Source: Eledone cirrhosa
Taxonomy: Eukaryota
Direction of reading: 5' to 3'
DNA length: 64,000 nucleotides
Assembly: GCA_964016885.1 (NCBI GenBank)
Contig: OZ024763.1
Location: 13,206,001-13,270,000 of the forward strand
A program made the position numbers and the translations under genes. Under the pieces are notes generated by a model. It worked only from the letters and a program-made list of their open reading frames with translations. It did not search any database and had not been told where the DNA came from. Shown piece after piece: positions 15,051 through 50,592 of the stretch (position 1 is the stretch's first letter; each line of letters starts with the position of its first letter).

Positions 15051-15240
15051 ACAAAGAGGGTGTGGTAAGATATCAGATGGACCATAACGCACCAGACTAC
15101 TCAATACTTAGGGTAGTAGAGTGGGTAATAGGAAAAGAATCAGGACCTCCGGCCGTTTCGACAGCTAGATCCGAACTAATTAGTTCGGATCTAGCTGTCG
15201 AAACGGCCGGAGCTCAGCCGCCGGGGTCCTGAGTTTTTTC
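15051..15240 (-). mobile_element. Fold-back HHR element, family C
   Basis: (TA)n flanked; perfect palindrome centred on GAACTAA|TTAGTTC at 15179/15180; HHR 3' half GAAA-CGGC..GCCG; homologous to the copies at 30098, 31081, 31252 and 40852. Confidence 0.7.
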
Positions 15241-15282
15241 ATATATATATATATATATATATATATATATATATATATATAT

Positions 15283-15492
15283 ATTAAAATAACAGATTAA
15301 AGTTTAAACAAAGAATCGTTGCTTTCACCCTTAACGGGATCTTCAGAAGATCCCGTTAAGGGTGAAAGCAGCGATTCTTTGCTTAAACTTTAATCTGTTA
15401 TTTTAATAAATATTTGCTCTATGTTTTTTTATATATATTTATCCTTATCGAGCCCTCTTTGGATTTTAGTCTTCACATTTATTATTATTACT
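15283..15492 (+). mobile_element. Fold-back HHR element, family D
   Basis: Palindrome 15283-15407 centred on GATCTTC-A-GAAGATC; minus arm reads CTGAAGA-T-CCC-GTTAA-GGG-T-GAAA; (TA)n on both sides; relative at 20700-20955. Confidence 0.7.
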
Positions 15493-16149
15493 ATATATAT
15501 ATATATATATATATATATATATATATATATATATATATATATATATGTATGTATATATATATTATCTGTAAAATTACTCCATTATAGGTGCCCTACTTAA
15601 AACCGTATCTTTTCAGGAAATATAATAAAAAATAACTAAGACAAATTATAAAGAATAATACAGTATTCAAAGCTGTGTGCATTCAAAGAGAAAGGGATTA
15701 GAAATTTATAAGTGCAAAAGCCTAAGCACGGGTATATTTTTAGACATGCAACAAAAAAAAATTATCAGTGTTTTTCCACAAGTATGATAAAATACGTTAA
15801 AACTGTTAATTGGTTACAACAGGGATTATTAAAAAGGATGTTTTTAATAGGTATATGGCAGTGCTTATCATTTTTTAGTCTTCTTATCATAGAAAGATAT
15901 GGAAATGTTTAGAAGATATTTCGTTAGTTAAATATCTTATGTCTCATGTAATTGTAAAGTAAGACTGAATTAATGCAGTAAAAACTTTCCCTGAAAGTAT
16001 ATCTACACATTTACCTATTATTTTTCTTATCAGGTTTTAAAGAAAACACTGCACCGATAGGTCCAATGCATTTCAAATGTTTCCACATGCAGTCATTTCG
16101 AAGAGCCTTATGTGCACATTACTTTGAAGCCTGTGTTGTTCTTTATAAT

Positions 16150-16332
16150 AGGGTGGTGGACTGGGAGTATCGGTAGAGCGTCGGACGCCATGCTTTCCAG
16201 CATAGAGTTACGTCCCTTTACGGTCTGAGTTCAAATCCCGTCGAGGTTAACTTTGCCTTTCATCCTTACGGGGTGGATAAAATAAAGTACCAGTAATGCA
16301 CTGGGATAATTGCTAGCCTTGTGCCAAAATTA
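16150..16332 (+). mobile_element. SINE family 1
   Basis: tRNA head and core as in other copies. Confidence 0.85.
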
Positions 16333-16382
16333 TTCTTTATAGTTTGTCTTATGATATTAATTTATTTATTGTTATTTTTTAT

Positions 16383-16513
16383 TATATTTCCTGAAGAGAT
16401 ACGCTTTTGAGTATAGCACCTATAATGGAGTAATTTTACTGATTATATCTGAGGGGGTTTTCTCCATAATTGATGGAACACTCAAGCCGCATTGAAACGC
16501 CTGTAGAGATGTA
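16383..16513 (+). ncRNA. Type I hammerhead motif with long stem II (family F)
   Basis: TATATTTC-CTGAAGA-[..TTGAGT..ACTCAA..]-GAAA-CGCCTG-TA^GAGATGTA; its 5' half is inverted-duplicated at 15561-15660. Confidence 0.55.
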
Positions 16514-47086: not shown

Positions 47087-47118
47087 ACGACGTTTCGGGC
47101 ATAAGCCCTTCCTCAGGT
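47087..47118 (-). ncRNA. Minimal Penelope-type hammerhead core
   Basis: AC-CTGAGGA-A-GGGC-TTAT-GCCC-GAAA-CG-TC^GT; followed by AATAAA and a (TA)n junction at 46997; stem I is only 2 bp. Confidence 0.65.
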
Positions 47119-48305
47119 GAGAAGTGTGTGGGAACAGAGTTCAAAGGGTGTGTAGGGGAGTGGTGGAGAGACATATAGCGAAAGGAAACGGTGCGAATGA
47201 AATTAAAAATAAAAATAAAAATAAAGCATGATCAAAATACAAGGAATGAAATAAATTTAAATATAAAAGCATGATCAAAATAAACTGAAATTAAAAGGGG
47301 GGTAAAACAGGTGGTGGAAGGGTGTGGGGTGTGTAGGGGTGGTGGCGGGTGGAGTGGGGAGAGGGAGACGGGGTGTCCGAGCGGGGAGACGTGTGTGTGT
47401 GTGTGTGTGTGTATGTGAAAGTAAGGGTTGGGGGAAGAACGGGGTTGCATGTTCAGGAAGAGGTGTGTGTGTGGGGGGGGGGGGGGGGTTGTAGGTCGGA
47501 GTGTCTGTGCGTGTGTGGATAGAGGGGGGGGGGAAAGGAATCAGGAGGCTGAGGGTGTAAATATGTGGTGGAAAGCACGTGTGTGTGGGGTTTAAGTGTG
47601 TTGTGGGTGTAGGTGGCGTGTGGAGAAAAAATTTTTTTGGGGGGTGTGTGTGTGGGTGAGTTATATAGGTGATTACGTAAGAGGATGGTTGAAAAGTTGG
47701 TAAAATCCTATGGTGTTTAGTGGATTCTGTGGTGGTCAAGTTCCACATACGAGTATTCCATGAAGCGATGGTCGGAAGAGGAGAGATGTGGGGTGCGCGC
47801 GCAACAGGAAGTGGTCAAGCAGTGGGAGTGCTGTGTGTCTGTTTGTGCTGGGAGGTGGTCAGAGGGCATAGCAGCAGTGTCCTAATATACATACATACAT
47901 ATACATGTGTGTGTGTGTCTGTGTTTGTCATTATTATATAATCATATATATATACATATATATATATATGGCATGTATGTATGTAAGAAACGATTGTCAG
48001 CTATTAAATGATTTGAACACAACATTGATAATTGTCTAATTTATATATATATATATATATATACATACAATATTAAATAAATGGAAACTGTACTATCTCC
48101 TCTCTCTCACTATCATATATTATATATTATATAAACTCTCCATAGTCGTTTAAATAAACGGTTGCTTTTCAATTATTTACATATTCATTTGCATATTCAC
48201 CCATAAGTTTGAAAAATCCATAATACATTTCCACTATCCAGAGAATATCCAACTGATAAGGTATGATTTTCCTGGGTATGTCTCTACTTATAAAACAAAC
48301 TTTGT

Positions 48306-48366
48306 ATTTTATCTGAAGAAAGCGTACCAAAGTGTTTTGGTACCCTTGAAATATATATAATAAAAT
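48306..48366 (+). ncRNA. Minimal type I hammerhead, family A (element ~48068-48520)
   Basis: ATTTTAT-CTGAAGA-AAGCGTACCAA/TTGGTACCCTT-GAAA-TATATA-TA^ATAAAAT. Confidence 0.8.
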
Positions 48367-50191
48367 AAATATGGTTTTATAAATATAGTTTCCATTTATT
48401 TAATATCATTGAATATTGACTCCAAGAACTTGTTGAGTGCTCTAAATCAGTTATAAACATTTATATTTATATTTGTCGGATTTCCAACAAATTAAATATC
48501 CCAATATCCTTTCTCCTTATATATATATATATATACATGAGATATAAAGAAACACGATTCTAATTAGGGCTAACTATGTGATGGAAAGAGGGTTGGGGGA
48601 AGTGACCTCAATTGGTGTAATAACTGAGATGAGAGGCGCGGTGGGTGACTTAATTGCGGCTATTATTTGTGGAGGGGTGACCTCTACCCCTCTTCCCCCT
48701 ATTAGGGTGTGACTATTAAGGGGTGGGTGAGAGAGGGTGGTGGTGAGTAGAGGGCGCAGTGCCATATACATTACATAGACAATAGAAAGCTATGTAAACA
48801 GATGAAGAAAACGGGAGGATGACGTGGTGGAGGGTGGATGGCGTGGTGGAGGGTGGATGGCGTGGTGGAGGGTGGACGGGGCGGTGGAGGGTGGATCGCG
48901 TGCATGGCGTGGTGGAGGGTGGATGGCGTGGAGGGGATGTGGGGGGTTGTTGTAAGATAACCTAGTTATTTTTCTTAACTAAAACAACTTGTCTTTGATG
49001 TCTTAAACCCTCTCCCTACAAACATCATCATTCACTCTCACTTTCCCTTACTCTACCGTCACACCTACCCTCTCTACACTACCCCCTCTCTCTCTCTCAT
49101 ATATATATATATATATATATATATATATATATATATATATATATATATGTGTGTGTGTGTGTGTGTGTTTGTATGTCCGTGTAAGTATATATGAAATTGT
49201 GTATACATGTACGCATATATATATATGTATGTATTTACATATATATATATATATGTATTTATATATATGTAAATATATATATATATATATACGCATATAT
49301 ATATATGTATTTATATATATATATGTATATATATATATATATATATATATATATATACATACATATGTATTTATATATATGTAAATATATATATATATAC
49401 GCATATATATATATGTATTTATATATATGTAAATATATATATATATATATATGTATTTATATATATGTAAATATATATATATATATATATATATATATAT
49501 ATATGTATATATAAAAGAAGGATGTATCCCCACATGGGGAACAGCTGTCCATTTTAAACATGTAGTGTTGAGAATAACGACTGTGTTCTAGTTTTAAAGT
49601 TGTTTATCCTGTGTCGAACAAACACATACATATATTTGTGTGTGTATACATATATACACACAATTGACGTGATTATATTACGAAAATAAGAAAAGTCGTC
49701 AATAAAATGTTCTTTAGCTACACACACACACATATGTACACACGCAAACACACACACACACACATGTACACACGCAAACACACACACACATATGTACACA
49801 CGCAAACACCCACACACATATGTACACACGCAAACACCCACACACATATGTACACACGCAAACACCCACACACATATGAACACACGCAAACACACACACG
49901 CATATGTACACACGCAAACACACACACACATATATATATATATAGTATAAATTAAAGTATAGAAATTAATGTGAGCAAGAAGCCAACAGTATTCCATAAT
50001 ATATAAGTGACTATAACGTCAAAATGGAAAAATAGTTAACGTAAGATGTGGGAAAATAATTCAAAATCAATTTTAAAAAAATCAAGACATAGATTAATCC
50101 ATAGAATTTTGTGAAATCCAGGGAAAAACCAATAGAGCCTTAATAAGATAAAGCTTAAATACTCATTCTTCAGTTTAGAAAAAATGCAAAT

Positions 50192-50271
50192 GCTCTGTAT
50201 AGTCTTAAAAAGACTATTTCGCGAAACTTTCAGTGGGGATGGTTACGGTTGGAGTCGTTCATCAGCAGAGC
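50192..50271 (-). ncRNA. Type I hammerhead with a stable stem III (family H)
   Basis: GCTCTG-CTGATGA-ACGA..TCGC-GAAA-TAGTCTT-TTT-AAGACTA-TA^CAGAGC. Confidence 0.75.
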
Positions 50272-50424
50272 TCAACACGATAACCCTAAATCTCACTGTA
50301 GAATATGCCGAAAAGGTAATTTAAAGACAGGCTAGTTCACCTCGTACGTAATTATGAAAAATAAACGCACATGGAGAGACATGGCTGGTGACGTCACAAT
50401 GAGTATATATATTTATATAAGTTT

Positions 50425-50592
50425 ATCTCGAGTTCAATCGGGGGTAACCCCAGTAAGGTACTCAATACATAGCGGAGTATGAATATTTAATGTAGAAAGG
50501 CTTCTACGGGACTAGAATTGTTTCATTCCGGAGAAATCATCAGGAAGCCCTGAATGAAACAGTTCTAGTCTTGAAGAAGCCTTTCTACATTA
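50425..50592 (-). mobile_element. Fold-back HHR element, family B (HHR at 50499-50549)
   Basis: GGCTTC-CTGATGA-TTTCTCCGGAAT-GAAA-CAATTCTAGTCCCG-TA^GAAGCC; the inverted arm begins right after stem I. Confidence 0.75.

Follow-up and report, generated by a model that had tools for sequence, protein, structure and literature searches.

Examination of a 64,000-nucleotide stretch of the Eledone cirrhosa genome (assembly GCA_964016885.1, contig OZ024763.1, positions 13,206,001 to 13,270,000 of the forward strand; hereafter the window) revealed DNA of animal character in which TA, CA and other microsatellites abound, along with many copies of a short interspersed element (SINE) and a series of short fold-back insertions. 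Each fold-back is made of a long arm and an inverted short arm that meet at a turn, and several carry a hammerhead ribozyme. These fold-backs are a real feature of the DNA and a miniature form of a structure known from Penelope-like elements (PLEs).

An inverted-repeat scan of the window gave centres at 15179.5, 15345, 17900, 22148.5, 29259-29276, 30021.5, 30154.5, 30718, 31311.5, 40988 and 50540. A twelfth turn, at 31188, has arms of only about 24 bp (31161-31184 and 31194-31218) and was recovered separately, so that all twelve turns named in an earlier note on this DNA lie where that note had placed them. A stricter census, with arms of at least 30 complex nucleotides and a spacer of at most 60, returned 12 close complex inverted repeats: ten of the same twelve, one at 17244 and one at 31234, the last being two adjacent short arms placed tail to tail. 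No such repeat occurred in any of 20 block shuffles of the window. The fold-backs were assigned to families A (22148, 30718), B (29262, 30021, 50550), C (15180, 30155, 31188, 31311, 40988), D (15345) and E (17900), and a sixth family, F, has a wide spacer. Complete insertions measure 140-450 bp and no coding sequence was detected in them. The palindrome at 17180-17308 has near-symmetric ends, neither ribozyme nor tail, and a SINE directly after it; an older 34-bp palindrome at 14562-14636 turns beside a CTGAAG motif. Two pairs of fold-backs (29898-30290 and 31081-31450) face each other with their short ends, separated by a single short TA tract; the result is a nested larger palindrome (31023-31183 / 31347-31507).

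The general layout described earlier, a long arm and an inverted shorter arm with TA repeats outside, stands with four exceptions: at 22148 most of the tail is gone, GT repeats follow the tail at 17900, and just a few TA stand at the long end of 30021 and of 50550. Every one of the 12 listed fold-backs joins one long end to one short end, and long-long pairs are absent. The difference between the ends is a tail of 70-95 nt present on the long arm only; the short arms of families B, C and D are 39-62 nt long. Contrary to the variable short-arm ends suggested before, the outer ends are fixed within families: the family C copies of the window agree at the short end in 6/6 and at the long end in 5/5, and the short ends of family A agree in four copies, while the three short ends of family B spread across about 15 nt of AT-rich sequence. 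A one-sided tail combined with two ends is the published 'tail' signature of PLEs. TA flanks are present, and any target-site duplication is unreadable inside (TA)n.

The same ends were sought in raw reads from reduced-representation Illumina libraries (two runs, two other samples) and in contigs (X1, and X5 from organism B). After position 30212, 3805 and 3545 raw reads (roughly one quarter of the local depth) pass into (TA)n, as do 120 contigs of X1 and 3 of X5; among the contigs of organism B (80 records) no empty insertion site was seen. Tails of families B, C and E share the motif ACTCT...TATTGAGT, which starts 0-17 nt 3' of the short end and is weaker in A, in D and in the 47010 element described below. 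Being common to otherwise unrelated families, this motif is a candidate protein-binding or reverse transcriptase (RT) start signal. Tails that bear it lie at 30213-30290, 29360-29429 and 18055-18125, and also at 30900-30988 and 47010-47090.

Table 1. Arms of the fold-back insertions and related copies in the window (window coordinates).
Feature	Position	Strand	Remarks
Family C long arm + tail	15051..15179	-	5' end 20 nt before GAAA; ~11-nt deletion spanning stem III 3' strand and cleavage site
Family C short arm	15180..15241	+	Zero-spacer turn on AATT; fixed short end, then (TA)n
Family D short arm	15285..15346	-	Starts at C3 of CTGAAGA
Family D long arm + tail	15346..15490	+	Start 2 nt into core
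Family F larger inverted pair	15545..16520	.	Arms 15559-15636 / 16371-16448, SINE between; hammerhead core ~16371; turn far upstream of ribozyme; no protein match
Solo family C piece	16530..16571	+	Same short end as other C copies
Perfect 61-bp palindrome	17180..17308	.	7-nt spacer; no ribozyme seen; absent from earlier note
Family E short arm	17748..17915	-	Includes 31-nt spacer; complete stem I 5' strand; 5' end 34 nt before degenerate core CTGAAGG
Family E long arm + tail	17916..18130	+	5' end 3 nt before core
Family A short arm, intact hammerhead	21986..22160	-	Owns 22-nt spacer; 5' end 81 nt before core
Family A long arm	22160..22305	+	5' end 58 nt before core; stem II deletion; tail ends after few bases
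Family B short arm, complete hammerhead (stem I 7 bp)	29203..29264	-	Owns 11-nt spacer
Family B long arm + tail	29265..29429	+	Starts at U4 of core; 17-nt unit x3
Family B long arm	29898..30024	-	Starts at G5 of core; owns 6-nt spacer
Family B short arm	30025..30080	+	Starts within stem II
Family C short arm	30097..30151	-	0/55 mismatches vs long arm
Family C long arm	30152..30290	+	GAAA, stem III with palindromic loop, GUC triplet; short end 30212, long end 30290
Family A short arm with hammerhead	30537..30714	-	5' end 78 nt before core
Family A long arm, hammerhead (core 30800) + tail	30715..30988	+	5' end 86 nt before core
Family C long arm	31081..31184	-	5' end within stem III 3' strand
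Family C short arm	31180..31218	+	Junction via 5-bp stem III; loop in short-arm sense
Family C short arm	31254..31311	-	Zero-spacer turn on CTAG
Family C long arm + tail	31312..31450	+	
Family C long arm + tail	40853..40990	-	5' end 18 nt before GAAA
Family C short arm	40991..41046	+	
Family A copy, independent reference	48060..48520	.	Copy 48233-48519 +; inverted short-end remnant 48070-48089
Family B long arm, complete hammerhead	50410..50551	-	Owns 23-nt spacer
Family B short arm	50552..50592	+	Starts in stem II loop
Solo family A copy + tail	58830..59090	-	5' end matches longer arms of 22148 and 30718

An explicit hammerhead test (core, stem II, GAAA, stem III, NUH, stem I) was applied to 18 stretches. 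It was passed by 4/4 stretches of family A, two of the three of family B and the family F copy, and failed by the third B arm, whose core is truncated, by both of D, by E, by both of C and by five other candidates. The type I hammerheads of A and B have a stem I of 7-8 bp that covaries between copies; the ribozymes of D and E are degenerate. Searches with Rfam returned no hit in the window at the gathering score, and below threshold only low-complexity microRNA matches, with no hammerhead model, among the matches listed (150 of 385). When seven ribozyme or tail pieces were folded as single strands, most did no better than their shuffles (z -2.35 to +0.45) and none gave a whole hammerhead. Hammerhead-like cores that fail the strict test lie at 21160 (-), 21460 (+), 50265 (-) and 53070 (+). 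An element of about 870 bp at 47010-47880 (-), with a hammerhead-like motif at 47116, a tail into (TA)n and no Pfam match, resembles a longer 5'-truncated copy.

Of the ribozyme, family C retains only the 3' half, with GAAA, a stem III of 5 bp closed by a palindromic loop, and GUC; no CUGANGA core accompanies any of its copies within the window. The 'stem II hairpin' at which its turns had been placed therefore has no independent definition there. Since 1305 and 1360 raw reads in two samples carry non-mirror sequence upstream of the 15180-type arm, this hairpin is at least partly a product of the inversion. The upstream sequence derived from reads allows weak pairing with the strand before GAAA and has no core in the 30 letters given. 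AATT is a frequent read end and CATG an occasional read start; we take both to be restriction sites, so that part of the family C upstream region is hidden. For family B, 1223 and 1338 reads run past the 30021 turn and restore the core and stem I.

The junctions themselves are informative about the two arms. The owner of the spacer was scored in 10 spacer-bearing copies, against an independent copy or by stem I pairing. The short arm owns it in five: 22148 (19 vs 5 matches), 31188 (7 vs 4), 29262 (8 vs 5), 17900 (5-bp vs 3-bp stem I) and, weakly, 15345 (1 nt). The long arm owns it in the other five, clearly in 50550 (18 vs 7) and weakly (5-7 nt) in 30021, 30155, 40988 and 30718. Fold-back of a tail-primed complementary DNA (cDNA) predicts a loop continuous with the long arm and could not produce one owned by the short arm; a short-arm cDNA that folded back, for its part, could not add a tail that it had not copied. 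Two further centres are spacer-free and lie on self-complementary AATT (15180) and CTAG (31311), which would fit the annealing of two equal cDNA ends. The arms differ at 26 of 716 aligned positions, with up to 11% mismatches and arm-specific deletions, and in 9/10 arm pairs (the exception being 31311) the partner arm is the closest of all copies; both arms thus come from a single source or have been homogenised. At 29265-29315, at the start of a long arm, a 17-nt unit made of core and stem II is tripled.

Joints in the reads add a second set of junctions, of which 15 were listed from a total of 133. Their sides measure 21-27 nt, each is a few-locus observation (1-3 read starts or 1-2 contigs), and they do not amount to a histogram, since turns with a small spacer cannot appear among them. 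Nine of the 15 are head-to-head with gaps of 64-113 nt, and in 8/9 of these the tail-bearing arm halts in the tail or at most 3 nt from the short end; in geometry such tail-only joints correspond to L1 twin priming. A tenth joint, of family B, starts a direct partial tandem at the short end (30024->29963; 15 and 8 read starts, both runs, and also contigs), a form absent from the window itself; these tandems restart 15-21 nt upstream of the core. Five joints were set aside: 29965->29200, 29965->30058 and 29952->30058 as reads of another subfamily that continue on a better-matching arm, and 29898->30212 and 30058->30209 as neighbouring insertions within one TA tract. The palindromes are partly borne out by independent data: in two other samples position 30143, which lies left of the turn in family C, has a coverage of 422 and 570 reads; a centre is crossed by two of the listed contigs, and several joints recur in both runs, while no listed contig covers a whole window locus. 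The reads left of the turn and the centre-spanning contigs make an assembly artefact unlikely.

The earlier note had proposed that the inversion point tracks the structure of the ribozyme. Its single turn points were sited correctly, but each turn comprises two arm 5' ends, often in different parts of the ribozyme. Measured from the first C of the core, these ends fall at -10/+1 (29262), +2/+8 (30021) and -8/+14 (50550) in family B, 0/+2 in D, -34/-3 in E, and -81/-58 and -86/-78 in A; the two A turns, given before as about 50-75 nt upstream, are thus 58-86 nt upstream of the core. Measured from GAAA, the family C ends lie at -20/-20, -18/-12, -18/-18 and -18/-13, and those of 31188 are joined through stem III. 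Family-specific hot spots for the turn therefore exist: 18-20 nt before GAAA in 4/4 for family C, with three read joints close by at roughly -15 to -18, and near the 5' edge of the ribozyme for B, D and E. The longer arms of family A and its solo copy share one 5' end, some 80-86 nt ahead of the core, which looks more like a fixed stop or the end of an RNA. A ribozyme helix serves as junction in one window case, the stem III loop at 31188, where the turn named before stands as a joint via a 5-bp stem III, and in one read joint (29254->29337; 1 contig, 1 read), where 7 nt of stem I fit both sides.

Even with these hot spots and the two helix junctions, the dependence on the ribozyme is only weakly supported, and the same holds for stalling of the RT at the ribozyme. 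Families A and F turn far upstream, the 17244 palindrome has no ribozyme, and family C lacks a core in the window. An arm end lies at most 10 nt from the core start in 5/8 core-bearing fold-backs (F included), an enrichment noted post hoc; its p value, which varies with the interval assumed, is 0.01-0.14 when copies are counted and 0.06-0.28 when families are. Together, the five categories of turn used in the earlier note take up 68-70% of the span between -75 and the cleavage site, which makes the claim as worded nearly unfalsifiable. Length alone suffices to make the short arms of B, C and D end in or at the ribozyme, as they are only 39-62 nt long; the ribozyme is found at the turn mainly because it lies 20-100 nt from the short end and the insertions are equally short. 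Cleavage by the ribozyme was rejected as a cause of the turn, since 0/24 window arms start at the cleavage site.

The head-to-head PLE structure and its self-priming reading are already in print. For PLEs, PMC8557442 describes (TA)n targets, copies that are inverted and 5'-truncated, and a tail confined to one end; Naiads, which lack a ribozyme, produce equally inverted and tailed insertions there. Head-to-head inverted pseudo-long terminal repeats (pLTRs) with a tail on one and palindromes at the junction are described in PMC3846280. The fold-backs share with endonuclease-bearing (EN+) PLEs such as Adineta Pen2a/Pen3a (PMC3846280; PMC8557442) the unequal head-to-head arms, the one-sided tail, the junction palindrome, the AT-rich or (TA)n targets and the partial direct tandems, and differ from them by their length (140-450 bp), the absence of detected coding sequence, tails of 70-95 instead of 30-40 nt, and the presence of at least five families in one 64-kb window. 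Features of EN+ PLEs found here are a type I hammerhead near the 3' end (A, B), an inverted 5'-truncated head-to-head copy in 12/12, a tail at one end only and, in reads, partial direct tandems. The view that these inverted insertions in TA repeats are Penelope-like is upheld by this match to the published head-to-head pLTR with a one-sided tail.

The anole PLE Poseidon studied in vitro (PMC11167929) is comparable in its two fixed internal RT start sites, which lie downstream of the hammerhead and bound the tail, in the cutting and extension of both strands, and in its AT-rich target. Its protein is a predicted dimer and a dead ribozyme leaves insertion normal; its start sites are closer together than the two ends here, and the accessible part of that paper does not model an inverted 5' junction. 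Minimal type I hammerheads of metazoan PLEs (PMC4209133) have in common with ours a palindromic helix III or loop 3 suited to dimers, many families per genome and pairs on opposite strands, which in Schistosoma lie 100-700 bp apart; these pairs are not treated as junctions in the portion available, and several families here have a longer helix III, with family C lacking a core in the window. Upstream, the read consensus of family B shows a T-rich run and a CAG where helix I begins, resembling the intron end at helix I reported in Drosophila virilis Penelope (PMC4209133).

Non-LTR (non-long terminal repeat) retrozymes (PMC7229834; bioRxiv 10.64898/2026.07.22.740005) are likewise short, non-coding, provided with a type I hammerhead and probably derived from PLEs. 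They are defined by head-to-tail tandem arrays, whereas the window copies are head-to-head pairs or solos and the reads hold only partial tandems; with no head-to-tail array of these families in the window, this assignment was rejected. No sequence of family C was found in metagenome contigs, viral contigs or prokaryote genomes. The two parts of an L1 insertion formed by twin priming do not overlap and their internal site is variable, in contrast to the present insertions with their fixed internal site and mostly overlapping arms. In that process (Ostertag and Kazazian 2001, as summarised in PMC2246262) two target ends prime on the element RNA and an inversion results, which agrees with the tail-only joints in the reads. 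We found no paper on the position of PLE turns relative to ribozyme helices or on twin priming of PLEs, in a search that left subscription journals mostly outside.

Taken together, these results lead us to give slightly better than even odds (about 0.55) to the reading that the palindromes are extremely 5'-truncated head-to-head PLE insertions, in which both ends of one (TA)n cut were primed and the two cDNAs joined. The insertions probably work like the inverted insertions of EN+ PLEs. From the fixed ends, the asymmetry, the spacer ownership and the joints, all of them observed, we infer each of the following enzymatic steps. The PLE endonuclease would cut both strands of AT-rich (TA)n DNA, as the anole enzyme does in vitro. 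One 3' end would prime at the far start site, giving the long end with its tail; the second would use an internal site, 70-95 nt farther upstream, and yield the short end. The two fixed ends are observed, and the anole work suggests their role as RT start sites. Both cDNAs would then extend toward the 5' end of the RNA and stop early, often at the family-specific hot spots, and their 3' ends, to judge from the junctions, would be joined blunt or by 1-7 nt of complementarity, sometimes drawn from a ribozyme helix. A palindrome would result when both cDNAs copy the same stretch, from two RNAs or by strand displacement, and a non-overlapping inversion, as in L1 twin priming, when the tail cDNA halts at the internal site.

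Several points weigh against this reading. Pfam searches of 25 selected open reading frames (ORFs; of 311 listed) and 21 read-through frames revealed no PLE RT or GIY-YIG domain, and one frame of family F had no phmmer hit among 1.84 billion proteins, so that the link to PLEs rests on RNA features; stubs so truncated would be expected to lack an RT/GIY-YIG ORF. (The region upstream of the F ribozyme, 15620-16150 (-), has by eye the look of a decayed cysteine-rich nuclease, with no hit in Pfam or phmmer.) The main caveat is that deletions of the centre after insertion could flip the owner of a spacer and shift a turn, and secondary change is visible in the tripled 17-mer at 29262 and in the arm deletions at 15180 and 22148. 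The sides of the read joints, at 21-27 nt, leave the outer end of the other arm unseen, and a wide-loop snap-back may account for some of them. The tails exceed the published 30-40 nt. The hot spot of family C may coincide with a genuine stem II loop, in which case stalling would be favoured. Finally, the sample comprises 12 elements of five families that are mutually non-independent. A more elaborate form of two-ended priming, a symmetric double target-primed reverse transcription, is offered as a speculation with the odds well against it: a protein dimer with two RNAs paired through their palindromic helix III loops would prime both break ends at two sites set by the tail motif, the ribozyme would act as dimeriser and junction guide and not as cutter, and thousands of palindromes would record the reaction.

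The best surviving alternative, itself unlikely, is that the turns moved after insertion, perfect palindromes having lost their centres by deletion between short direct repeats supplied by the helices. Four family C centres can be derived by eye from one perfect palindrome by small deletions, 31188 is the remnant expected of a deletion between two stem III copies, and the secondary changes at 29262, 15180 and 22148 point the same way. Long palindromes are unstable, and their centres are prone to deletion; a literature search on such centre deletion found no supporting paper. The persistence of zero-spacer palindromes at 15180 and 31311 argues against this explanation, which also leaves the two fixed outer ends and the direct tandems unexplained. 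Later deletion is compatible with two-ended priming as a subsequent step.

Slightly less probable still is the mechanism suggested before, in which the RT stalls at ribozyme helices and the tail-primed cDNA snaps back, primes itself and forms a hairpin that is resolved into the TA tract. The junctions through stem III and stem I, the arm ends close to the core, the five spacers owned by the long arm and the family C cluster, where the read consensus allows a weak natural hairpin, would all suit it, and a fixed short end could be an endonuclease resolution site, as suggested for tails in PMC8557442. A single snapped-back cDNA is nevertheless contradicted by the five loops owned by the short arm, the stem III case among them, by two centres that duplicate the would-be loop and have no spacer, and by the fixed short end. 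There is by eye no microhomology at 30021, the turns of A and F and the 17244 palindrome lie away from any ribozyme, the enrichment near the core has the post hoc p values given above, and Naiads form the same structures with no ribozyme (PMC8557442).

Self-priming on an antisense RNA template, proposed for Adineta Penelopes on the basis of head-to-head repeats with palindromic junctions (PMC3846280), appears improbable for the present elements. Zero-spacer palindromes occur here too, but the arm lacking the spacer could not have received a tail from a single template (5 cases), and in vitro it is nicked target DNA that primes on sense RNA (PMC11167929). Palindromic masters copied whole, either fold-back DNA transposons resembling miniature inverted-repeat transposable elements (MITEs) or palindromic SINEs, are largely refuted. 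The TA targets, the shared family C turn and a broken mariner-type DDE transposase in the window (PF01359) would be in keeping with them; the ends, however, are asymmetric, all three family B junctions differ, more than 1200 reads per run pass the turn in non-mirror sequence for both B and C, the arms share subfamily variants, and many copies are non-palindromic. The fixed symmetric terminal inverted repeats of a MITE or fold-back DNA transposon were not found, nor was any tie to a transposase seen. Chimeras of assembly or amplification are scarcely credible: the raw reads are of the reduced-representation type and whole loci are missing from the listed contigs, but the arms carry up to 11% mismatches and their own deletions, and the reads over 30143 and the recurring joints come from other samples and from both runs.

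Other elements of the window can be described briefly. The mariner-type remnant (33100-34120, +) matches PF01359 with an E value of 4e-9, and a broken non-LTR RT fragment at 8400-9800 (+; RVT_1, E 8.5e-11) is unrelated to the fold-backs. The SINE, which is 180 bp long and resembles cephalopod SINEs, is present in more than 20 copies, several of them in head-to-tail arrays (about 14665, 16160, 17330, 27750, 34170-34585, 37465, 38900, 40285, 53265-53970 and 55350-56070). Four tandem arrays are present, with units of about 62 bp (26045-26480), 65 bp (37940-38565), 95 bp (44500-45700) and 80 bp (51960-52760). Every unit of the 95-bp array includes the word CTGATGA, and dispersed copies matching this array lie at 581-772 and 59167-59359.

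The biological effect of these insertions on the host is probably nil. Their value lies in what they may tell about PLEs; how these form their tandem and inverted ends is an open question according to PMC8557442. The stubs are short, belong to several families and are abundant, with more than 32,000 reads on 1.1 kb in each reduced-representation run. Genome-wide counts of spacer owner, outer-end pairing and arm ends could separate snap-back, antisense self-priming and two-ended priming, and the same counts would tie the genomic pattern to the two start sites known in vitro.

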